A stretch of 64,000 nt of DNA from Plasmodiophora brassicae (taxonomy: Eukaryota), in contig CP145410.1 in NCBI GenBank assembly GCA_036867785.1, positions 186,001 through 250,000 of the forward strand, written 5' to 3'. The notes beneath the pieces are model-generated. The model made no database searches. It had not been told where the DNA came from and was given only the letters and a program-made list of their open reading frames with translations. The translations under genes were made by a program, and so were the position numbers. This document shows, in pieces, positions 1 through 21,700 of the stretch (positions are counted from its first letter, which is position 1; each line of letters opens with the position of its first letter).

Positions 1-420
1 AGATCAGTCATCTGAGCTATTGCAAGAGCCAATATCAGTGCTGACCACAACGAGAAGGAACGCACGTCCACAGTGCAGCAGCAGCACACTGTGTCAGTTG
101 CTTCACGTTGTGGACTCGTGGATTTCTCAGCGTCGTTTGATCAATCAATGAAGCCGGCTGCGGAGTCCGTCGCGCAGTCCGACTCGTCTGACATTGAGCC
201 GCGGCCCGCGGACAGACGATTCTATAGCGCCGCCCCTAATACTGAGGTTCGCAGCGGATTCGAACCTATCTAATGCCTACGAACCGCAACACACATAGGC
301 CATGGTTCGCTCGTCTTAAACCTTCGTACTTAACGCCCCCTTCACTCTCACACGCGCCATCTTGTCCAACTACCTCAGTCGTGGACGATCGATAGCCATA
401 CTTTCATAGGGTTCATTCAT

Positions 421-1776
421 TCATTCATAGCATCCGAGACGGTAAAGCAACACTCTGCCTCGATCGTTTCCAATGGCTAAATGCCTGCTATCAGGGGCGA
501 ATGCAACAGCGGACACGAAATGCAGCGGGGTCTGAGAGGTCGGCCAGGACGGGAACACGGTCCTCGTCGGTACATGCACAATTCGCAGCGCATCCTGCTT
601 CTGGCGAGACGCCATGATGAGCAGATTGCCGTCGTGGTTGAACGTCAGGTGGTCAATAGCTGTTGTAAGCGACATGATGGACTTGACTGGGTTCGGTGCC
701 CCATCAGCGTACAGGTTCACGACTCCCGTGCTGGACCCGGTCGCAACGATGTTCTTCGAATTACCTGCAACAGCCACGCGGGTCGCCTTGACGCATCCGT
801 GATCAGAGAACCGCGTCCTGCACTTTAGGCTGCCGACGTCGAATACGTAAACGTCGCCATCGGCACTGAAAGCCGTCAGTTCCGAGCCATCGCTGGAGAA
901 CGCGACAGATCGAACACTGCCGTTCACACGAACCGTGCCAAGGCACTGCTTCGATTTTGCAGATACAATGGCAACGTAACCGTCCTGGCACAGGAATGCG
1001 ACATGTTTGCCATTAGGCGATGAAACGAACTTGTGGAATGACGAGTCGGGTCGGCCACGAACGCCAGGGACCTTCTCAACAGCACCGCGCTCAATGTCGA
1101 ACGTGTAGAAGAACTTTCGCGGCCCTGACATCCACACCTCGTCGCTACCGACAAACGACGCGCACTGAATCGGCAGGTCAGCAACGTGGACAGACTGGAG
1201 TTTGTTGTTCTGGTGCCCGTCAACGTTGAACAGTCGCAGCGTACGATCCATGCCGGCGGTCAGGAGAAGCTGCCCGTTGCTATGGAAAGCAACGCTTTGG
1301 ACGACGCTTTCCGACACGCCATTAACGTTGGCGTCCTTCAATCGAGCGATACGGAAACTGGTAGTGCCCAGTCGTCCACCGGCGCCACGCGCAAGAAGGG
1401 GCTGCGCGCTACGAAGATATGCATCTTCGTCATCGTCCTCATCAGAAGCACGACCGTTATTGTTCGCCCAGTCTGCGGTCCGGTGAAGCTTCCGGAACTG
1501 GGTTCGAAGACGCTCCACGTATTCTTTGCCTGACACGGTAACCTCGTCCTCTACCTGGCGTAGTTTCCGGTTGCGGGCTGTGCTTGATAAGTCAACGCGC
1601 ACGCATTCGTCATCCTCATCGACCCACGCCGGCTTCTTCTCCAACCTCGTCGCATCCTCCTCGTTACGCCGATCAACATTGTCGGCTACGACATCACCAA
1701 ACAGCTCTTGCTCCAACTGATGCTCAACGAGTTCGTCATAGGAGCGCTTCTCGCCAGCTCGGAGCAGAGCAGGCAT
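421..1776 (-). CDS. UTP18: U3 snoRNA-associated protein 18-like WD40 protein
   Basis: Intronless ORF with KPAWVDEDD, 'SGKEYVERLRTQF', 'RLKDAN' and WD repeats ending TVFPSWPTSQTPL...AIGNDRGRVLLYRL; first ATG at 1776. Confidence 0.9.
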   Translation of the reverse strand: MPALLRAGEKRSYDELVEHQLEQELFGDVVADNVDRRNEEDATRLEKKPAWVDEDDECVRVDLSSTARNRKLRQVEDEVTVSGKEYVERLRTQFRKLHRTADWANNNGRASDEDDDEDAYLRSAQPLLARGAGGRLGTTSFRIARLKDANVNGVSESVVQSVAFHSNGQLLLTAGMDRTLRLFNVDGHQNNKLQSVHVADLPIQCASFVGSDEVWMSGPRKFFYTFDIERGAVEKVPGVRGRPDSSFHKFVSSPNGKHVAFLCQDGYVAIVSAKSKQCLGTVRVNGSVRSVAFSSDGSELTAFSADGDVYVFDVGSLKCRTRFSDHGCVKATRVAVAGNSKNIVATGSSTGVVNLYADGAPNPVKSIMSLTTAIDHLTFNHDGNLLIMASRQKQDALRIVHVPTRTVFPSWPTSQTPLHFVSAVAFAPDSRHLAIGNDRGRVLLYRLGCYE

Positions 1777-4813: not shown

Positions 4814-5054
4814 GTCGTCATCACCAGGCGGCGTGCTCCACCTGCATCGCAGGAGCGCTAATGGAGGCGGCTGCAGAGTCAGCGGCGCTGGACCATGTAC
4901 GTTCGTCGCATTGCCCCCCGGAAACGTGTGTGTGCCTGTGGAGCATCAGTGCCCGACGACGGTCGAGAGAGAGAGGGCGTCCCGTCGCGGCATTCGAACG
5001 ATCCCCGTGGGGAGGGGGACGCCGCGCCAAGCGGCTGCATCGTGTCCGTCGGCA

Positions 5055-8000
5055 ATGGCGCTGGCGTTGCGGGTCGTCCGGGGCGGCTGCAGGACGGTCG
5101 GCGACTGCGCCTGGATTCGCAAGGCGTTCCTGGACGAGATGGTCCGGCAGGAGCACGTCGTCGTGCCGTCGTCGTCGCTGGTCCCGCAGCGCGATTCGTC
5201 GCTGCTGTTCACGAATGCGGGCATGGTGCAATTCAAGGTGGGTGGCGCGCGTGTGCGCTCCTGCACATAGGCTGGTGGGGGTGCTGATGCGCGATCGTGG
5301 TCAGGACGTGTTCCTGGGTGCGGAGCCGGTCGCTCCCCGCGTGGCCACGTCGCAGCTGTGCCTTCGTGCCGGCGGGAAGCACAATGACCTGGACAATGTC
5401 GGGCCCAGCCCGCGCCATCACACCTTGTTCGAAATGTTGGGCAACTTCTCGTTCGGCGACTACTTCAAGGCAGAGGCCATCTGGCTGGCATGGGAGGTGC
5501 TGACTCGAGTGTACGTCGTGCGGCGCGTCCTGTACCGTGAGGCGCGCCCATTGATAGTCCACCGCACCAGATTTAAACTGGACCCGGCCCGCCTCAGTGT
5601 CACTGTCCAAGAAGGAGACAGTACGACTGCCGATTTGTGGACCGACGTCTGCAACGTGCCTATGGAACGTATACGATTCGTCGATGACAATTTCTGGTTC
5701 GTGAACGACCTGTCCGCAGGTGGTCGTCGATTAAAGGCCGTTGCGTAGGACGATGGGCAACGGTCCTGGACCGTGCGGTACCTGCACTGAGATATACTGG
5801 GATCTAGGTCCCCACGTCACCGAAGAGGATAGGTCACGTGCCGCGGCTTATCCTGTCGATGGGCGCGGGTACTGACTGCCCAGTAGGTTTCTGGAGATCT
5901 GGAACCTGGTGTTCATGGCTGAATACCAGACGGAGCTCGGGAAATACGAGGAGCTTCCTCGCTGCTGCGTTGACACTGGCATGGGCCTTGAGCGTCTGGC
6001 ATCGGTCCTTCAGGGCGTACCGAGCAATTTTCACATTGACAATATGACGTCGTTGATTAAGGCCATCGAAGAGTTGGCGGTTCGCATCTCAGGTGTGGAT
6101 GGATGCCAGTTTGTACTTGGGGACCGAACGTGAACGCCGTCCCTATAGGAACATCATCGGGACCCCTGACAGAGCGGAACGATTCGTTCACGGCCCTGAA
6201 GGTGATTGCCGACCACTGTCGTGCCATCACGTGCCTCATAGGAGATGGCGTCACCCCGTCGAATAATGTAAGCCGTCATCGACCTGCTCCGTTTGATGGA
6301 ACAGTCCCCGTAACCGTCCCCTGGTAGGGTCGTGGTTATGTCCTGCGCCGCATCATTCGACGAGCACAGCGCTTTGGCGCTCGCCTTGGTGCCCATGGTA
6401 CTCTAATCGCGTCCTGTCATCACCCATGGTTAATGTCAGCTGATTCGTGCCGCCCTCGTTCAGTCCCGTTTCTGCATGAACTCGTGCCGCACGCCGTTAC
6501 ATCCCTGTGTGGAGCAAGGCCTGAGCTACTTCAGGAGGATCGCATGACGCGGGTCCAGACGTGCTTGAAGGCTGAGGAGGAAAACTCCATCGAGTCCCTG
6601 CAGCGTGGGACAACGCTGCTGGAGCATCACTTCGCACGTGGCTCTCGCTACGTCGATGGCGAGACAGCGTTTCGTCTCTACAGCAGCCACGGTTTCCCGA
6701 TCGACCTGACGTCGTTGATCGCGAGCGATCACGGCGCGTCCGTCGACGTTCAGCGCTTCAATACGTTGCTTGAGGAAGAACGCGAAAAGTCACGCGCGAC
6801 GTGGTCCTCAGCGTCTTCTATTCCCGATGACGTTCGCCTGTGGGGTATCAAACCCACAACGGTTGACATTGACTCTGTCAGTGGCCCGTCAATCGTGTCG
6901 GCCGTGTCCAAGGCAGGCTTCGTTGCTATCGACCCGTGTCCTTTCTACGTAGGGTGCGCCGTCTGACCGCCCATCATTGGTAATCTAACGGAGACGTTAG
7001 GCTGAAGGCGGCGGTCAAGTTGGCGACATCGGACACCTATCGCTTCTCGACGGCAAACAAGTGCGAGTCCTCGACACGACCATCCCGTACTCGGGCGGCG
7101 TCGCCCTGTGTATCGACCCGGCCGATCTGGCCGACGTCAGCGTTATTGGGACATCGGTCGTACCCGTTGTCGACCGGCGCCATCGCCAGGATGTGTCCCG
7201 GCACCACACGGCCACACATCTGCTACACTCTGCCCTTCGTTCCGTCCTGGGCTCGTCCGTGACACAGGCCGGGTCGCTCGTCGGTGCCCAGTCGCTCCGG
7301 TTCGATTTCGTCTGCAACGCCCGTTTGACACCCGACAAGGTTCGTGCCGTCGAGGGCCACGTCAACCAGCGCATCGCGAGCGAGGGCGACGTCATCATCG
7401 ACGAAATGACATACGCCGATGCGCTCCAGCAGGGTGCGCTTACTGCGTTCGGCGAGCGCTTCACCGACGACGATATCGTTCGGGTCGTCCTTGCCGGTGG
7501 CGAGTCGTTCGAGCTGTGCTGTGGCACCCATGCCAAGACGCTGGGCGAGCTGTACCCGTTCAAGATCCTGTCGCAGTCGTCGGTGGCCGCCGGCGTTCGA
7601 CGTATCACAGCGGTCTGTGGACGCCCGGCAATCGACAAGGGCGTGGAAGCATTCGACGAGCTGAGCGCCCTTCGGCAAACGCTTGGGGACAATGCGTCTT
7701 CGTCGTCGTCCGTCGGCGATGCGGTCGCTGGTCTCCTGTCGAGGTCGAAGGCGATGGAGCGCGACAACCTGGCCCTGAAGACGCGTCTCGTGCTGGCGGT
7801 GGCCGATCGACGTGCTGTGAATGGCATCGACTACATCGTCTCGTGCGCCGCCGACGTCGACCTGGCCCCGCCCGACCTGAAGCAGATCTGCAAGCGACTC
7901 TCGCAGGCGTCCGTCGTGGCCATCGTGACGGCGACTTCGCTGACTGTCGCCGTCCCCCGTCAGCTGTCGTCCTCGATTAACGCCCGCGACATCGTTCTGC

Positions 8001-8423: not shown

Positions 8424-9167
8424 CTACATGGGGGCCACCTTGTTGCGTTTCTCGACCCAGACGACCTCGCACAGGCTCGCGATGGCCTTCGCCGCCTGGA
8501 GCGCCGACTGTCCATCTGGGCAGCAGTCAGGTGACGGCTTCCACATGGTCAAACACAGGCGCGTTCCACCTGCAACGTCTGCCACCATGCGGTCGTTCGA
8601 GTATTCGCTGGCGATCGTGACGGAGACGCCCTGCTGGGCCAGGGTGGCCTTGTAGTATGCGACCAGCTTGGCCATGTCGCGATCGGGGCTGTCGCACAGC
8701 AGGACAATCAGGCGGGCGGCGGCTTCGGCGGCATCGGGCACATTGGGCGACACCTTCTTGGACAGGTCGACTGGCGCGCACGTCACCGACGGTGCATACT
8801 TCTGCTCCAACGTCGCCAGCTCGGCGCGCGTCAGGCCGAGCACGTATCCGTCGGGAGGTACGTACCTGCTCAGAACGTACGTCAGCACTCGGTAAGCCAG
8901 GGCACCTTGCCCCGCCGCCTACTACCGGGTCAGCTGGCGGCCCAGGTCGGCCTCTATGGATTGTCGCACGGAAACGCGACTGGCTGCGTCGACGCCGGAA
9001 AGGCTGACCAGGTAGACGGCGCGGAACCCGGCGACGAAACACGACGAACCGTCACCGTCATCCAATGCCGTGAACGTTCGCGTCGCGTCCGGCATCGGGC
9101 ACGTGTCGTCGGCGGATGCGCTGAGCGCGACAACGGTAATGGCACCGAGGAGGACCCTACCGGACAT
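8424..9167 (-). CDS. Hypothetical protein with predicted signal peptide, spliced; exon structure uncertain
   Basis: MSGRVLLGAITVVALSASADD N-terminus; downstream coding-like ORF 8424-8888. Confidence 0.4.
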
Positions 9168-9521
9168 GATACTGTTGGTTAATGGGACGCGTTCGGAGGT
9201 CATCGCCGGCGTACCGCCCAACAGGTATCGGCATCCGACGAAATCGCGATCGGCCACCTCGACGGATTGGTCAACGACTGAACGGTGTTCTGGAAGCGGA
9301 CACGAGTGGAGGACATCGGCGGCGAGCGGTTCTAGATTCCGCAGGTCGATCATGGCTGGTACTGTCACTTGGAGATCCTCCGACCGCGTCTATCGTTCCA
9401 CGTCTGGTGTGGGTTTATTTAACTCCCGCGCCTGCCGTTTCCCACCTGAGCAATTTTTACCCCACCGATTGTTCGTCGCGGAAGAGCGCGACTGCAGGAA
9501 CTGCACAGGCCGCGTCAGGCG

Positions 9522-12320
9522 GTGACGTGCACTAAATCGAGGCGCCGGCAGTCTCCGTCCGCATTCCCGGACGGCCGTCGTCGTCGTGAGATGTCGGAAT
9601 TCGAGGTTGCTCCTGAGGTTGCTCTGCAGTGTCTCCTGCCAGCAGATGATGCCGAGCGTGCGCCCGTTCCCAAAGCGTTGCACGGTGCGCTCGATTTGCT
9701 AACGCGGTCACGTGCCCTCTGCACCGTGTTGTCGTTTCGCGACTGGCGCGATCTGCTCGCTGTCAGCTATTCCCTGAATCGGTACCTCCAGTTCTCGCCG
9801 TTCTGGCCGTGGCTGTTCAACCACATTGTCGTCCGGCCAGACAGGTTGCCCGCTGGGTTCAGCGTTTTCCGCCTGGTCGCTCGCGTTCTCTATCCTAATT
9901 CTCCCGCACTGAATCGCCCTCTCCTGCATGGGGCGACCGCACCGACGCCGACCCGCCCATCTGCTCCCACTCCTGTTGTCGTCTGCTTGACGCGACAAGA
10001 TTCAATTGAACTCCGAACAGCGTTGGTTCGTCGAGCCCTGTCAACCAGCAACGCCCCCACCGCCACTCAACACGAGGCCGTCATTGTCGCTGTCGACGCG
10101 CTGCTTCAGTTTGGGGTTCCCGCCGAACAGGTCGTCGATCTTGCCGCCAGCGTTGAATCGCCAAACCGCACCTTGCAAGTCTGCATCGCCGCATACCTCG
10201 CGATGAGGCCGGGCGGGCCCCCCGCCAACCTACACACGCTTGTTCGCACGGCAACAACCTTCATCGACTTCGTGGGGCTTTGCGCCGGCGTCGGCGTTGA
10301 CGGTCTTCGCGAGAGCAAGTGGGACCTGCGCGGCACGCGCTGGCCCCAGGCCGTCCGCCGCATGATCATCAAGTCGTTGGCGTCCATGTCCTGGTGGCAA
10401 CTCCTGGACCTATGCACGCAGGGCCGGCAGGGCCTTATGAAGGCTCTGTTCAAGAGCCTGCATTTCGTGACGCTGCTGCGTCCGAGCGACGACGCGGGCC
10501 ACCGACGCCTGTACCTGTTGCAGTCGATCGTTCGCGGTGCGCGTTACCCGACCTGTCCGGACGCGTTCGCCGCCTGGCACAACACGATCGTCACGCCGCT
10601 GATCGACCTGGTCCAGGCCCACCAGGGGCGTATCGAGGTGCCCGCCGAGTGGATCGCAGACCATTTCAATGCGGCGCTTGCTGGCCGACCCCTTGTCCGT
10701 CCCTTGAAACGGTCGATCGATATGCTGCTGGCGCGCTATGGCAACACGAGTGCAACTTGGGCGCTCATAATGGACTCGCCGGCCTTGTTTGCATCCTGGG
10801 GCGACCTGGCCGGCAACCTCGTCTCCATCATATGCGCCGACTGCCCGATCGCATCTGTCCAGCGTCTGGGCCACGCTCTGCTCGCCAAGGGCGCCGCCGT
10901 CACCGCGTTGGCCGTCTACCGGGCGGCGCTGCGGGTGCAGGCCGCCATGGACAATGAGTTCATGAGCAAGGTCAGCGATGCGATCGCGGCATCACCTGAC
11001 GGCGACAGCGTACAGGTAACCGTCGAAAACCTGGTGAAGGACAGGAAAGGCAACTGGACGTCGCTCGACAAGACGATCAATGTTGCGCGTACGTTCGGCG
11101 CCGACACCGTCGCGGCGTACCTAACGTGGCTGTCGGACGTCACCGACGGCTTGCTATCCAGGAGCACGCCGGTCCCTGGTGCATCCTCCATTATCGTGTG
11201 CTCGTCGGAGCTGACGAACAATCCCGTCCGAACGGGCGCCCCGCCCGCCATCCCGTCGTATTCGCCCGTCGCCCTGTGGCGCAACGAAACGGTCAGCCTG
11301 GCGAGGAGCGGCGTCGGCGACACGATCCTGGCTGGCATCACATGGTGCCAGCCCGAAGGTTCGACCGTCCCAGTCGACCTCGACCTGTCTGCCATCTTCT
11401 TCCAGGAATCGTTCGCTTGCCTGGGCAGCTGCAGTTTCCAGACGCCCTCGTTCCTCGCCGAGCACTCTGGCGACATTCGGTCGGCACCGTTCCCGAACGG
11501 CAGCATGGAGTACGTCACGATCGGCATTGAGCGGCTGAGACAGGCCGGGTGCCGGTACGTTGCCCTGACCGTGCACTCGTTCACTGGCCAGTCGATGGAC
11601 ACGCTGGCGGACGCGTCCGTGTTCGTCGCCAACCCGGCTCGGAGCGGTACCGGCCCGAATGGCCTGTCCATTCTAACCGCCGCCCGACTCACCGGAAAAG
11701 GCACCTGCAACGTTGCCGCGTTCCTCACGATCGGCGCCGACGGCGCGGCGTCGTTCACCTGCGTCGACCACACGCTGAACGTGGACGCGCGCACGGCCAG
11801 GTCGTCTTCGAACAGGGCCGGCGACGCGGTCTCCCGGTGCCTGCGAGGGCCATCTGCGATCGGCGCGCTGCGTTCCGTCCAGGTCGCCGCGCTCTACTCG
11901 GCACAGCTATGCGAACGCGTGCACGTGGTCGGCCGCAACGGGGCCGCCGCTGACCTCGTCCGGGCGTCGTCGGAATCGTCGGGCGCGTGGCTGGCGCGGA
12001 TCGTGGCGGCAGTCGACGACGCCGGCGTCTTGAGCGACGTCGCCCCGGCGAACATGGCAGGTGCGCCGTCGAGGGCGCGCCTGGTGTTTGTCGACGAACT
12101 CGTGCCCATTCGGGATGTGGTGCGCTCGACGTGGAGGTCCTGCGCCGACACCCTGGCCGTCGTCATCGTCGTCCGACTGCAGAGCCACGAGACGGGCCTC
12201 GAGGAGTACGCGGGCGGCGCCGATGGACATGGTCCGCGTACCTTCGTCTGCAAGGGCTGGGACACGCTACGCCTCCTGCGACAGGCGTTATCGCTCGACG
12301 GAACAGCGAATCGACAGTAA
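9522..12320 (+). CDS. Intronless protein: F-box-like N-terminus, helical TROVE/ROT-like region and TerD-like domain
   Basis: 932-aa ORF (ATG also at 9591); TerD motifs GITW..VDLDLSA, HSGDIRSAP, EYVTIGIERL, RYVALTVHSFTGQ; middle region RWPQAVRRMII...LMKALFKSLHF. Confidence 0.75.
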   Translation: MTCTKSRRRQSPSAFPDGRRRREMSEFEVAPEVALQCLLPADDAERAPVPKALHGALDLLTRSRALCTVLSFRDWRDLLAVSYSLNRYLQFSPFWPWLFNHIVVRPDRLPAGFSVFRLVARVLYPNSPALNRPLLHGATAPTPTRPSAPTPVVVCLTRQDSIELRTALVRRALSTSNAPTATQHEAVIVAVDALLQFGVPAEQVVDLAASVESPNRTLQVCIAAYLAMRPGGPPANLHTLVRTATTFIDFVGLCAGVGVDGLRESKWDLRGTRWPQAVRRMIIKSLASMSWWQLLDLCTQGRQGLMKALFKSLHFVTLLRPSDDAGHRRLYLLQSIVRGARYPTCPDAFAAWHNTIVTPLIDLVQAHQGRIEVPAEWIADHFNAALAGRPLVRPLKRSIDMLLARYGNTSATWALIMDSPALFASWGDLAGNLVSIICADCPIASVQRLGHALLAKGAAVTALAVYRAALRVQAAMDNEFMSKVSDAIAASPDGDSVQVTVENLVKDRKGNWTSLDKTINVARTFGADTVAAYLTWLSDVTDGLLSRSTPVPGASSIIVCSSELTNNPVRTGAPPAIPSYSPVALWRNETVSLARSGVGDTILAGITWCQPEGSTVPVDLDLSAIFFQESFACLGSCSFQTPSFLAEHSGDIRSAPFPNGSMEYVTIGIERLRQAGCRYVALTVHSFTGQSMDTLADASVFVANPARSGTGPNGLSILTAARLTGKGTCNVAAFLTIGADGAASFTCVDHTLNVDARTARSSSNRAGDAVSRCLRGPSAIGALRSVQVAALYSAQLCERVHVVGRNGAAADLVRASSESSGAWLARIVAAVDDAGVLSDVAPANMAGAPSRARLVFVDELVPIRDVVRSTWRSCADTLAVVIVVRLQSHETGLEEYAGGADGHGPRTFVCKGWDTLRLLRQALSLDGTANRQ

Positions 12321-12399
12321 AACACCTATGCGCCACCTTTCCGTCGACGCATCATGAGGCGGCCGTCGCAGATGGGTAGCCGTCCTGAGACAGTTGGGA

Positions 12400-12484
12400 C
12401 CGGTACCGCTCCGAGCCGGGTTGGTGACGAACACGGACGCGTCCGCCAGCGTGTCCATCGAAGAGGACGACTGCACGGTCAGGG
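12400..12484 (-). repeat. Inverted partial copy of the TerD-coding segment 11563-11653
   Basis: 12400-12461 is the reverse complement of 11592-11653 with 1 mismatch in 62 nt; 12472-12484 matches 11563-11575. Confidence 0.93.
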
Positions 12485-12667
12485 TGCATCCGCCAATGCC
12501 ATGCGTGTTGTAGAACATGGAGGACGTCGCGCTCGACTTGTCTAGTTCGGTTTCCCGTAGTCCCCTCCCTTTCTGACGAAACTGGGACAGCCGACTAACA
12601 CTGCTCCTTGAAGCGTTCATGTCCCAGCGCCGGTCAACGGCTTCTGAGACGAACTGTCGGGTGGATC

Positions 12668-12768
12668 AAAAAATATGCGCAGGCTGGTTCGGGAATTGAA
12701 CCCGAACCAAAAGTGAAACGATAGTCATGGTCGGAGGACGGACGTGTGAGTAATCAATTGTACCAACC
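12668..12768 (-). ncRNA. tRNA-like element (T-arm/B-box, 7-bp terminal stem, T6 terminator); not a canonical tRNA
   Basis: Minus strand reads GGTTGGT...TCGGG-TTCAATT-CCCGA-ACCAGCC-TGCGCATA-TTTTTT; no clear D-arm/A-box or anticodon arm. Confidence 0.4.
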
Positions 12769-12844
12769 ATGTTGGCGTTCCAAAGGTCGGCCCTTCAGTT
12801 GTACTATAAGAACGTTCCAACGGTGTGCCTGCGTCAACATTCGC

Positions 12845-12955
12845 TTGAGTTGAGTTGAGTTTATTTGTTGTTCGCGCTTTTCACGCAGGCGTCTCGGTAT
12901 CGGGTCCGAGGACCGAAGGCTCAACGAGCAGAACGCCAGCATCACTCGGCCTGGC
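12845..12955 (-). mobile_element. Dispersed repeat copy 1, resembling a non-LTR retroelement 3' end with a (CTCAA)n tail
   Basis: Similar to 46798-46912; minus strand ends ...EPSVLGPDTETPA*, then AATAAA, then ctcaactcaactcaa. Confidence 0.6.
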
Positions 12956-13898
12956 AGTGCCGGCCCATCACCTCTGTTCTGGGATCATCGCGTCTGGACG
13001 ATATCGGAACGTGACTTGACTCGCTCGGAATTGCCGACTGCACTCTTTGTCGGGTCAGGGAGCTATAGCTGCTGATGCCGCCAATGGGCGTCAAGCGATG
13101 ATCGGGCGCCGCCGTACAGTCCACTCGATACCTGAAGGATCGCCTGAGCAGTACGCTGCACCGCCGGGCTCAAACCGTTCTCGACGCTCATTTACATATC
13201 ATCAATGATACACAGGTAGAGAACGCTTGGCGGTATTGATGGGGGTGCGGCGGACGTGGTTCCTTCGATATTTTGTCGCGCAGGTGAAGGGGGTTGGATT
13301 CTCCATGCTGCCCACTGAAGCCAATTTGTTGAATGCGCCACGTACTCCGTATGGAGCTCCACAGGAACTCCTTACCTGGGCGATCCATTCGGGCGCGACG
13401 ACCGGTGCCGACGTGTTATGCATGAAATTGCGGATCGACATCGCGAACCCCAACGAGGCATCATCACGGCGCGAAGATGGCGACGGCTCCTCGTCAATGA
13501 TCATTATTGGCACTCACACCGTCGACGGGGATCTCATGGCTACGGCTACACGTTCATTGGATCGGGCATACCGGGCGGAGTCGAGCATCATGACATGGTG
13601 CTCGGCTACAGTTCCAATTTGTGCGCTAGTCTGCGTCCAACCTGTGCGCGTCGCGATTTCGCGCGACGCTGTTGCCTTCGGTGCTGAATGCTGACGGCGC
13701 CATATTTGGTTGCAATGGGTCCATGACCAGGTGACAGCAAGTCCGAGCGGGATCTGCTGCCGTCCGAGCAGCCAGGGCGGCGGGCCAGATAAAGATTCCA
13801 GCGTTCCGAGCGAGGTCGACATCTCAGGCTCAGCTGCTCATCAAAGTCCCGATCGGTCGCCGACAATGCCCATCAGCAATCGTATTGGATCGCATCGT

Positions 13899-18702: not shown

Positions 18703-21700
18703 ATGGTGGTCGCCAACGAGGATGTCGACAAGGAGAACTGGCTGCCGCGCGTCAGCGGCAAGCAGGCGCTGGCCCGACGCCGGTCGACCGGGATCATGAA
18801 AGGCGGCGATTCGACAGGGACGCTGCTGTCGCCAAAGCCGAAGAAACGCCGGCGGGAGAGTTTGAGGTAGGGATTGATTTTCGCCCGATATTGCATGGTC
18901 TAAGCGCGTTTCGGTTAGCAAGCGAGTCAGTTTCGGTGTCGTTGATGTGCGATTGTATGAGAAGGACGAGGACTGGTCGGAGAGCCCAGCGAACGTCGTG
19001 CGATCTGTTGATGTCGGGACTGTACCATTCAATGATCACCCGACACCGAGTCCGGTAAAGCCCCAGGAGGCGCGCACGCTGCTGAGCCTCGTTCAAGACG
19101 ACGACAGCGACGACGACGACCAGACGATGGAGATGACCGTGAACGTTGGGAAGATCATTTCGGCTGGGGAGACACACAAAGTAATTGGCGATGAAGCGTT
19201 GAACAACGCTGACCAGGAACAGACGATGGAGATGACGGTCAACGTCGGAACGATCGTTTCGGCTAGCTCAGTAATTGCCCTGCAGACCACGGCGGTTGAC
19301 AGCGAAGAGACCATGGAGATGACGGCAAATGTGGGTCAGATCCTTTCGGCGAAACTGCCCGACGACGGTGATGAGACGATGGAGATGACAACCAACATCG
19401 GCGAGATCGTGTCATCAAACCCGACCACCGAGGCTGATGAGACTATGGAGATCACGACGAATGTCGGCGCCATCCTGAGTACCGCATCTGAGGTGTACAA
19501 AGACACGAACCCCGCTGAGCGTGACGATGAGGGGCCGGAGGAAGGGGAGATTACCATCCAGATGGACGGCAACTACGACGAAAGTACGGCGGATTTGCAG
19601 AGCGTGAACGGCGAACAGACGATGGATATGACAGTGGCTCATGGAAAGATCCTGGCCGTCGAGAGCGAGCAAACAATGGAGATGACCGCAGTGCACGGAC
19701 AGATCCTGTCAACGAGCGCCCACCCTGTTCTAGACGATCGGGAGAACGTGGAGCACGTACAAGAGCCCGCTAAGGAAGAGTCTGAGCCTGACCCGCCGAA
19801 GGACATCGCTAGCCAACCTGACGGGGTCGTCAGCGGTGTCGTCGAAGAGACCGTCATTCACCCTGCGGTGACACACGACTTCTCTCACCTTCTAGACGAC
19901 GACAACGATGTGTCGACCACTGTAAGGGATTCAGAGCAAGCAGTGTTGGGTGACTCTTATACCTTGTATCAGGTTCCGATCCAGCAGGCATCAGCGGAGA
20001 CACCGGATATGGGCGATATCGATGCTCTGGAGGACCACGAAGTTACTGGTGAGCTGACCAAGAACTTTAAGGCCAAGATGGCTGGGATTTTGATGGGCGA
20101 CATTGATGAGCGCACGGTCGACCTGCGCCAGGCCAACCTGACATCGTCCGAGCTGGCCATCGCGGCCGTGTTCAAGAGGATTCTCGATGATAGCACCAAC
20201 GACACTGTCAATGATGCTCGTGACTCCATGCATGGCAACGACGACAGTAAGGTGCTAGAGAGCGTCGACGAATTCCTGTCCAGGAGGATTATGTCGCCTC
20301 AACGACCGGCTGCCAAACCTGCGCCGAGCAAGGCGGACGAAGCCGTAATCGTTCCCTCCACTGTTCAGCAGCTGCTGGCGCTGGCTGGCATGCGATTCAT
20401 GGACAGTTGCAATTGGAGTTCGTCTCGCAAGACGCTCTCCTTCGGGTTCTGTCCGCCTTCGGTCCGAACGATCAGCGATCACGATCGGCTCAAACTGTCA
20501 TCTGTCGACCAGATTCACCTGGAGCAGTTGAAAGGCAGTTGCGGGCAGATGTCGACCGCTGTTGGACAGCTGAAGGACGACATCGCCAATCTGGAGTCTA
20601 TTGTCGACTCGCAATGCCAAGGCGTTTTCGAGAAGTTGGTCAAGGTTCGCATTTGGATCATTAACCGTGATGCCGTCCTGACACTGAATGTCTCGCAGGA
20701 TGGCCAAAACTCCCTCGCAAGTGTGATGAGGCGCCTGAAACAATTCTGCAAGGCAGAGGCGCGGCTGAAGTGGTTTGACTACCGAATCAAGCAGGCCGAG
20801 CAGACGCGAGATGCTTTTCTAGGTCGAGCTCAGGTTCTCGCTGCCGACGTGTCAAAGATCGAGAGAGCGGACGCTGAGGTCGATAACGGCAACTGTGTTT
20901 GAACGTCACGTATTAACCTATGCCCTGCAGCTTGCTGAAAAGATGCCCATGCGAGCGCAACGAGAAGAAAACGGCCAACTTGCTGTTCTGAAATCCGCAG
21001 TTGCTGAGCAAGCCGAAGCGATCGATGTTTTCCTCTTGCAGCGGGACCAGCTTGTCACCGAGCGCACTGCAGTAACCGATCGCGTTTCCAGTATCAGGCG
21101 GTCCATCGCAGAACACGAAGAGAACCTGCGTAACGCCATTGCGAAACAGGAACTCGAGGTCGTTGGTTCCACCTGTATCTACCGATGCGGTTCGCTGACA
21201 CTGTCGGCAGGAGCGGAGGGCTCGTGCAGATCGTAAACTTCGTCTCGTGAAGGGTGCCGCTGGGTGGGACCTCGTCCATTGCAACCGGCGCTCTCTGTCG
21301 CTCGAGGTCAACCATGGTTACACGCTGTCCATCCGCCTGTCGGCCGTTGCTCGCGGCGTCATCGACCACATTGAGCTGTCATCACCGTCAGCCAAGCCGG
21401 TTGCGGACGAGGGCCTCTCCGTTATGCGCGACGTTCGCGTCGCTGAAATCCGCTCCCTGTGCTCGGAGTGCAAGACGACCCAATCGTTGCCTGCTCTGAG
21501 GGCTAAGGTCCGACATCGCCGTCTATCCCGTACGGCACTGACGGTCTGCCGTTCAGATATCAACCCGGGTAGGGCGGCTGCACAGTCTGGAGCTGGAACT
21601 CCAACGGCTGCGAACGGCGTTCACTGTCGAGATCATGGACGCGTGGACGGTTCTGGTTCGGATATCGTCGATCTCGCCCCTGGAGTGCGTCGAGGTCGTC

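Follow-up and report, generated by a model that had tools for sequence, protein, structure and literature searches.

Introduction

The closest described relatives of the protein considered here belong to the prokaryotic MXAN_6230/SCO0854 family of RING domain-containing proteins (NCBIfam NF041916), a family that has been named yet is uncharacterised. Proteins termed 'ROT/TROVE' have also been noted in jumbo phages in a passage of PMC7824862, and a passage of PMC7159879 proposes that TerD domains sense Ca2+ or a nucleotide-like ligand. The locus in this study is an open reading frame (ORF) at positions 9522..12320 of the forward strand in a stretch of 64,000 nucleotides (nt) of Plasmodiophora brassicae DNA (contig CP145410.1, positions 186,001 to 250,000), and the whole of that stretch is referred to below as the window. 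The body of the encoded protein belongs to the family named above, and its replaced N-terminus marks a eukaryote-type branch.

The ORF represents an intact gene in the nuclear genome of a plasmodiophorid protist. The explanation favoured here for the protein as a whole is that of an F-box-type receptor of a SKP1-cullin-F-box (SCF) ubiquitin ligase, carried on a Ro60-TerD body that would act on RNA, and we consider this explanation as apt to be wrong as right. Residues are numbered throughout from the ATG at position 9591.

Structure of the protein body

A full-length AlphaFold2 model, built from a 71-row alignment, has a mean predicted local distance difference test (pLDDT) score of 89.8 and a predicted template modelling (pTM) score of 0.87, with pLDDT falling below 50 in two segments only (residues 104–123 and 906–909). 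The body of this model (residues ~124–905) shows the architecture of a Ro60-type module, with a closed helical-repeat ring that is followed by a von Willebrand factor type A (vWA)-like domain holding a TerD insert (Table 1). Foldseek comparison of the model with the PDB placed TerD-like structures first (9a6r_B, 3ibz, 2qz7, 2qng and 2kxt; E 5e-7 to 2.9e-5, template modelling score by target 0.66–0.72), and also returned Ro60 structures (9l5y from a Thermus phage, 1yvp, 9nen and 9kop) with probabilities of 0.90–1.00.

The same two groups of structures were recovered by VIA-align. TerD structures aligned to residues 558–750 with Z-scores of 18.8 (9a6r_B), 16.3 (3ibz), 16.2 (2qng), 15.9 (2qz7) and 12.9 (2kxt). 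Ro60 structures aligned over a model range of 141..902 for 9kop (TROVE domain; Z 16.8, 419 residues aligned), 9l5y (Z 15.6) and 9nen (human Ro60; Z 14.3), with 1yvp and 2i91 at Z 10–11; taken together, the Ro60 rows have 417–448 residues aligned within model range 122–905. Von Willebrand A1 domains followed at Z 8–9 over model range 517–909. As the Ro60 and vWA alignments flank the TerD block, the TerD domain is read as an insertion in the vWA-like domain, placed after its first strand and helix (531–543). The connector leading into the insert has the invariant residues R547, G549, P552, P555, W563 and E566, and the DLDLS and HSGD motifs are conserved within the TerD domain itself. One further PDB chain, 7jtk_A (a Chlamydomonas radial spoke 1 chain), aligned to model residues 157–756 with Z 14.5 and 186 residues, which a TerD-like flagellar domain may explain.

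Relationship to prokaryotic and phage proteins

Of the protein families searched by sequence, it was NF041916 that matched the protein (E 1.9e-26, profile positions 562–793 of 842), at 92.5 bits where the cut-off of the family is 600 bits. Exhaustive searching with HMMER gave 543 proteins at E ≤ 1e-3, of which 93 were at ≤ 1e-10 and 27 at ≤ 1e-30; identity to the best of them was 33–36% over residues ~130–800. Few of the 150 relatives listed have names: P0004 is AMSG_10594 of Thecamonas trahens, and P0010 and P0014 are EukProt gene models, the remaining close relatives being metagenome proteins from short contigs. The distant matches are full-length NF041916 members (up to 1105 bits) with Prok-RING_4 fingers. 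A word-index protein search, with the single sequence as well as with profile A3, matched nothing but the protein itself and a single protein from Streptosporangium, which reflects a limit of the index. When the profile of 20 eukaryote-type members was aligned with that of 21 bacterial members using hhalign, the match had a probability of 100% and an E-value of 2.5e-40 over 606 columns, and it covers residues 122–810 (profile columns 124–858 against 179–796), so the kinship with the bacterial family concerns the whole body and not the TerD domain alone.

Signals of the two component domains appear among the relatives. In alignment A2 (20 relatives and the N-terminal piece of the plasmodiophorid protein), scanned against Pfam at E ≤ 10, TROVE is found in 11 of 21 members and TerD in 4 of 21; TROVE exceeds its 23-bit cut-off in P0018 (31.7 bits) and P0050 (32.2 bits), and TerD scores exactly 25.3 bits in P0007. 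The plasmodiophorid protein itself scores under the gathering thresholds of TROVE (PF05731) and TerD (PF02342), neither giving a match at E ≤ 1. It therefore stays below the formal sequence thresholds of NF041916, TROVE, TerD and F-box, and its predicted structure has the folds of both TROVE and TerD. Two eukaryote-type metagenome proteins (P0017 and P0158, 1262–1273 amino acids) have in their C-terminal part one more vWA domain, of canonical type and with its DxSxS motif intact (Pfam VWA, E 5e-12, residues 952–1110); one source gives these proteins the name YegL.

The N-termini differ between branches of the family. Prok-RING_4 was found in the scanned bacterial relatives P0063, P0066, P0087 and P0088 and a C3HC4 RING in P0055, and a regular expression for RING matched 15 of the 21 bacterial proteins and none of the 20 eukaryote-type ones. 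As judged from the sequences, the clade of the plasmodiophorid protein is without the bacterial N-terminus and RING, and a helical domain of ~100 residues stands in their place. Three forms thus share one body, namely a bacterial form with its own N-terminal domain and a RING, a phage form with the bacterial N-terminal domain and no RING pattern, and a eukaryote-type form with an F-box-like domain. The bacterial form is exemplified by proteins from Myxococcaceae, Myxococcus, Longispora and Streptosporangium, and among the nearest large clusters of the ESM Atlas most are from Actinomycetota, with viral ones as well.

The viral form, of ~700–840 amino acids, was found at 69 IMG/VR loci on contigs of 25–66% G+C and keeps the bacterial-type N-terminal domain (profile positions about 4–112). 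Among the matches listed, the ORFs at these 69 loci align to the bacterial profile with E-values of about 1e-120 or better, mostly skipping positions ~112–168, and the regular expression that served for the bacterial controls found a RING pattern in 0 of 52 distinct ORFs. A tblastn search with a viral-contig protein returned 12 phage records, six of which cover at least 80% of the query protein; carriers include Salicola phage SCTP-2, Xanthomonas phages XacN1 and Xoo-sp13, Rhodobacter phage RcXuper and Rhodococcus phage Weasels2. The body form was also seen in phages RpAliso, LpeD and WXIN. Where annotated, the phage genes are called 'hypothetical' or 'cytoplasmic protein', and they are probably the same genes as those reported as 'ROT/TROVE' in PMC7824862.

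An earlier note on this DNA, made from its sequence, had described a 2.8-kb ORF with a set of motifs, assigned it to TROVE/Ro60-like and TerD proteins, related it to a prokaryotic RING-TROVE-TerD family and stated that phages encode such proteins. These points are borne out: the motifs VDLDLSA, HSGDIRSAP, RYVALTVHSFTG, RTATTFIDFVGL, RWPQAVRRMII, LMKALFKSLHF, DSPALFA and LCTVLSFRDWRDLLAVSYSLNRYLQFSPFW are all present in the translation of the ORF, and the homologues, the matches to solved TerD and Ro60 structures, the Pfam signals in relatives, the NF041916 and hhalign results and the tblastn records from isolated phages, jumbo phages included, agree with the assignment.

A quick IQ-TREE phylogeny was made for the TerD-centred region using 93 rows, these being the 97 with a match of at least 170 profile positions less four duplicates. 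A single clade of 40 rows (Shimodaira-Hasegawa-like approximate likelihood-ratio test, SH-aLRT, 99) takes in every one of the 15 rows that carry the F-box-like domain and no row with a RING pattern; its other 25 rows have no detected N-terminal domain, and many of them are fragments or N-terminally truncated. The main clade of the bacterial family has 47 rows, 20 of them with a RING pattern (SH-aLRT 96), and six rows (P0106, P0107, P0130, P0151, P0077 and P0135), three with a RING pattern, branch beside the 40-row clade. The plasmodiophorid protein lies inside the 40-row clade, adjoining a group with P0007. Because Thecamonas trahens and EukProt models also belong to this diversified clade, the gene is clearly not one that was recently transferred into this organism alone. 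It is likely, from these sequence relationships, that the body is of prokaryotic or phage origin and that the transfer was into eukaryotes; as the tree is unrooted and most of its rows carry no taxon, this direction is given as likely and not as demonstrated.

The N-terminal domain

Residues 1–103 form a domain that is conserved among the eukaryote-type relatives. Modelled alone with AlphaFold2, it has a pLDDT of 87.4 and a pTM of 0.75, with helices at residues 28–39, 41–46, 49–58, 60–68, 71–75 and 92–100. Of 160 family sequences scanned with a hidden Markov model of the domain, 28 contain it (21 were in the training alignment), and in 20 it starts within the first 20 residues. Three hhalign comparisons with the bacterial N-terminus and RING gave no similarity (probability 0.1%).

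An exhaustive VIA search of 48,161 chains with this domain found 36 chains at Z ≥ 2 and a maximum of 3.3, a value that taken alone indicates no more than a common arrangement. The top two rows are FBXW8 (Z 3.3, 63 residues aligned, root-mean-square deviation 3.0) and FBXO31 (Z 3.0), and with Cdc4, FBXO3, Fbs2, beta-TrCP1 and perhaps SLY1, for which the chain identity is uncertain, F-box proteins account for 6–7 of the 36. Since F-box proteins make up, by our estimate, a very small share of the PDB, this amounts to a strong enrichment, and each of them is aligned from about what we take to be the start of its own F-box. The relative P0037 comes close to the Pfam F-box threshold (E 0.002, 18.4 bits against a cut-off of 20.5, residues 36–66 on profile positions 12–42 of 43) and also matches F-box-like at E 0.017, in a region that corresponds to the columns of residues 45–72 of the plasmodiophorid protein.

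The chances that the N-terminal domain is a divergent F-box are about even. The F-box-like N-terminus put forward in the earlier note is plausible on weak support: F-box proteins are enriched among the fold matches and P0037 lies near the threshold, but Z does not exceed 3.3 and the plasmodiophorid protein has no Pfam match of its own.

Proposed mechanism and alternative explanations

As a divergent F-box, the N-terminal domain would recruit SKP1 and cullin, making the protein a substrate receptor of a SKP1-cullin ligase, and SCF would do for the protist protein what their own RING does for its bacterial relatives. By analogy with Ro60, the ring may engage RNA that is misfolded, damaged or foreign, at its ends, or the corresponding ribonucleoproteins, and the TerD insert, by analogy with proposals made for TerD domains, may sense Ca2+ or a small nucleotide-like ligand. 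Ubiquitylation of the bound partners would follow, as part of RNA quality control or of a conflict with viruses or hosts. A more extended version, in which a small family of eukaryotic proteins arose from a Ro60-TerD conflict protein of bacteria or phages by exchange of the RING for an F-box, giving an SCF receptor with an RNA-threading ring gated by TerD, is put forward tentatively, as possible more than probable.

A number of results speak against an SCF receptor that acts on RNA. For the N-terminal domain, the search of Pfam with the protein's own sequence gave 0 families at E ≤ 10, Foldseek against the PDB gave no match (best E 2.5), a smaller VIA search of the PDB gave four candidate chains, none at Z ≥ 2, and a profile of 17 N-terminal domains gave 0 PDB sequences at E ≤ 10. 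The ESM Atlas returned nothing usable for residues 1–103, its own model of the domain being poor (pLDDT 0.56). An F-box signal at E ≤ 0.02 is seen in only one (P0037) of 29 scanned relatives, and the Leu-Pro that we take to open most F-boxes is missing from the alignment of the domain family. For the protein as a whole, Pfam gave no match at E ≤ 1, TROVE, TerD and F-box included, and PDB sequences gave nothing beyond a chance transaminase (E 0.76). By eye, no DxSxS motif of a metal ion-dependent adhesion site (MIDAS) follows strand 531–536, where the protein has CSSELTNN and the family consensus is T.EL..N. The arginine of a conserved 'NLRSL' motif, present in most relatives, is valine (V411) in the plasmodiophorid protein, and R639 in the TerD domain is methionine. 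Shared gene neighbours were found neither between two bacterial loci (Myxococcus and Longispora) nor, beyond near-copies, among the 69 viral-contig loci.

The alternative that survives best retains the same body and takes the N-terminal domain to be a clade-specific helical cap or regulator, the RING having been lost and the protein acting as a sensor of RNA or a ligand, or as a chaperone, with no link to ubiquitin. The low Z-scores and the lack of Foldseek, PDB sequence and Pfam matches for the domain are what this explanation would expect, and the body can evidently work without an E3 module, since no RING pattern is seen in the phage forms. When modelled together with the body, the domain has a pLDDT of 71–90, which would fit a packed cap. 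Less easily accommodated are the F-box proteins among the weak fold matches, each aligned at its F-box, the near-threshold score of P0037 at homologous columns, and the location of the new domain exactly at the E3 position of the relatives. A cap or regulator of this kind is a serious possibility, although on balance we lean away from it.

It may also be that the ring, vWA-like and TerD domains form a Ca2+- or stress-responsive scaffold for protein-protein contacts that does not handle RNA, as has been proposed for other TerD/vWA proteins. Ca2+ binding and a role in stress are known features of TerD proteins (title of 2kxt), some conserved residues of the TROVE region are changed, as at V411, and no partner resembling a tRNA or a Y RNA came to light, though none was sought. 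The ring is, however, closer to Ro60 structures, RNA complexes included (Z 14–17), than to karyopherin-type repeats (Z ≤ 6), and two relatives score higher than the Pfam TROVE cut-off, so that a scaffold of this kind appears unlikely.

Gene model and genomic surroundings

Counted from its GTG, the ORF has 932 amino acids and is the sole long ORF at this place. It is far beyond chance, the next-longest ORF overlapping 8500–13500 having just 292 amino acids in an antisense frame. The real start is most likely the first ATG, at 9591, which gives a product of 909 amino acids, because an identical 909-residue protein is present in a public collection and because assembled contigs begin downstream of the GTG at 9522. 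The identical protein lies there on three contigs, the longest of 1,943,040 bases. The protein retains 70 of the 82 positions that are at least 80% conserved among 19 aligned relatives.

Table 1. Coordinates in the window of the coding sequence, of the regions encoding its protein domains and of an adjacent repeat (aa, amino acids).
Feature	Position	Strand	Evidence
Coding sequence, 909 aa and stop, intron-free	9591..12320	+	ORF; exact database protein; gap-free contig in each of four runs
N-terminal helical domain, F-box-like, aa 1–103; core helices aa 28–75 (9672–9815)	9591..9899	+	AlphaFold2; hidden Markov model; weak fold matches
Pro/Ala/Thr-rich linker, aa 104–123	9900..9959	+	pLDDT < 50
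Ro60/TROVE-like helical-repeat ring, aa ~124–525	9960..11165	+	VIA-align and Foldseek Ro60 matches; Pfam TROVE in P0018 and P0050
vWA-like domain, first part, aa ~526–557, and connector RxGxPPxxPxYS..LWRxE	11166..11261	+	von Willebrand factor A1 matches
TerD domain inserted in vWA-like domain, aa 558–750	11262..11840	+	VIA-align; Foldseek; DLDLS and HSGD motifs
vWA-like alpha/beta domain, second part, aa 751–905	11841..12305	+	Ro60 and von Willebrand factor A1 alignments reaching 902–909; hhalign to aa 810 (profile column 858)
Inverted copy of coding bases 11592–11659 (TerD region), 68 nt, 96% complementary	12394..12461		repeat search

The stretch is present (at least 77% of sampled words) in 20 sequencing runs of 11 studies, none of which is recorded as RNA. 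Four of these runs, from four studies, each gave one contig of 2761–2805 nt with no gap and no mismatch over the gene; these contigs start at 9548, 9557, 9567 and 9582 and end at 12324–12347. The same four runs show no cover at 9102–9403 and 12424–12574 and nearly none at 9404–9554, from which nothing is concluded here. Run X1 contains an uninterrupted 2778-nt contig over the whole ORF together with a contig of the upstream neighbour that skips the 60 nt at 8863–8922 (ends CT..AC, that is GT..AG on the minus strand). As a spliced form of the neighbour is among its contigs, run X1 includes RNA-derived contigs, and this gives a faint indication that the gene is transcribed and unspliced. The short minus-strand intron at 8863–8922 joins the minus-strand ORFs 8424..8888 and 8922..9368 of the neighbour.

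The inverted copy downstream begins 74 nt past the stop codon, and a minus-strand ORF at 12288..12620 carries the copied peptide MDTLADASVFV.NPARSGTGPN. A transcript reading through into 12394–12461 would form a long hairpin with 11592–11659. The copy could have been left by a partial inverted duplication, or it could act as a regulatory hairpin.

The neighbouring long ORFs are eukaryotic, encoding a WD40 protein, a partial alanyl-tRNA synthetase, ankyrin-repeat proteins, a Spc7/MELT kinetochore protein, IFRD, eIF3e and the N-terminus of VPS13. Over 97% of its length, the eIF3e of the window shares 74% identity with the Spongospora subterranea protein, against 47–48% for the relatives that come next, which identifies the host as a eukaryote of the plasmodiophorids (Phytomyxea, Rhizaria) rather than the fungus that the Spc7/MELT, IFRD and eIF3e genes might have suggested. 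The alanyl-tRNA synthetase ORF at 4861–5748 (+) spans only profile positions 42–161 of 552, so the gene is either split by introns or continued in other frames. The ORF at 19127–20902 (+) has MELT motifs and a weak Spc7 match, resembling a rhizarian KNL1/Spc7-type kinetochore protein.

The gene had been described in the earlier note as intronless among intron-rich genes and, by suggestion, as horizontally acquired. The intron-free ORF, the 60-nt intron of the neighbour and the partial alanyl-tRNA synthetase ORF agree with the first of these statements, but several other uninterrupted ORFs, of 590–800 amino acids, occur in the window. With regard to the second, a prokaryotic or phage origin of the body is likely, but the acquisition is not a recent one private to this organism, given the 40-member clade free of RING patterns.

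The absence of introns, together with the nearest large ESM Atlas clusters, which are bacterial (Actinomycetota) and viral, might have raised the suspicion that the gene was inserted recently, from a bacterium or phage, into this genome only, or that the assembly is contaminated. This is contradicted by the eukaryotic genes that flank the gene on a 1.94-Mb contig, by a G+C content of 0.655 at 10001–12000 that lies inside the 0.51–0.68 range of the window, by closest relatives (33–36% identity) that are without the RING pattern and include Thecamonas trahens and EukProt models but not bacteria, and by the identical sequence in the 20 runs, leaving such an event highly improbable. Scarcely more credible is an ordinary, vertically inherited Ro60 orthologue of the organism, which would account for the Ro60-like ring and vWA fold but not for the lack of a Pfam TROVE match, the TerD inserted in the vWA, full-length homology that goes to the MXAN_6230/SCO0854 family, or the absence of animal, plant and fungal proteins from the few named relatives among the 150 listed.

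Significance

A Ro60-like ring with a built-in TerD domain is an arrangement familiar otherwise from bacteria and large phages, and the candidate F-box in place of the RING predicts binding to SKP1. Should such binding prove true, it would argue that the whole family couples the recognition of RNA or a ligand to ubiquitin-type tagging. The SCF reading, if correct, would also document a transfer from a prokaryote or phage to a eukaryote after which the protein was connected to the ligase machinery of its new host. RNA surveillance of the Ro60 type would then be coupled directly to cullin-RING ubiquitylation for the first time, and the case would serve as a natural experiment indicating that the prokaryotic RING of the family acts as an E3. 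In the literature on TROVE, TerD, Ro60 and Prok-RING_4 no description of a eukaryotic F-box-TROVE-TerD protein was found, though an earlier one cannot be excluded. The eukaryotic members so far are those of a plasmodiophorid and an apusomonad, EukProt gene models and environmental sequences, which is why the family has escaped model-organism biology. The plasmodiophorids being plant-parasitic, one may speculate that the protein bears on RNA-level conflict with the host or with viruses.

Comparison with known systems

F-box proteins (PF00646, PF12937) may resemble the N-terminal part of the plasmodiophorid protein in having a three-helix core followed by a conserved aromatic-Trp, placed N-terminal to a large binding module. 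The plasmodiophorid protein differs from them in an additional N-terminal strand and helices (residues 1–27), in an insertion between helices 1 and 2, and in reaching no F-box threshold. With the TerD/SCP2-type stress proteins (PF02342) it shares the same beta-sandwich, at a root-mean-square deviation of 2.6–3.1 over 158–175 residues, and the DLDLS and SGD motifs; those proteins are free-standing, at ~190 amino acids, whereas here TerD is an inserted domain. The acidic GDGDDE-type stretch that we take to be typical of classical TerD is replaced by SAPFPNGSME.

Ro60/Rsr proteins (TROVE, PF05731) likewise have a helical-repeat ring followed by a vWA domain, and the model aligns to human, frog-complex and phage Ro60 with Z 14–17. 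Sequence identity to them is 10–14%, and the plasmodiophorid protein alone has TerD in its vWA and an extra N-terminal domain, with no MIDAS seen and no Pfam TROVE match. The agreement is broadest with the MXAN_6230/SCO0854 family of Myxococcota and Actinomycetota, in which the ring, the vWA-like domain and the inserted TerD are homologous and both the DLDLS and HSGD..SAP.P.GA.E motifs are shared; that family has Prok-RING_4 and a bacterial N-terminal domain, whereas the plasmodiophorid protein is without both and has a eukaryotic host. The phage members, for their part, share with it the ring and TerD body and the lack of a detected RING pattern, but they keep the bacterial-type N-terminal domain, where the protist protein has an unrelated F-box-like one.

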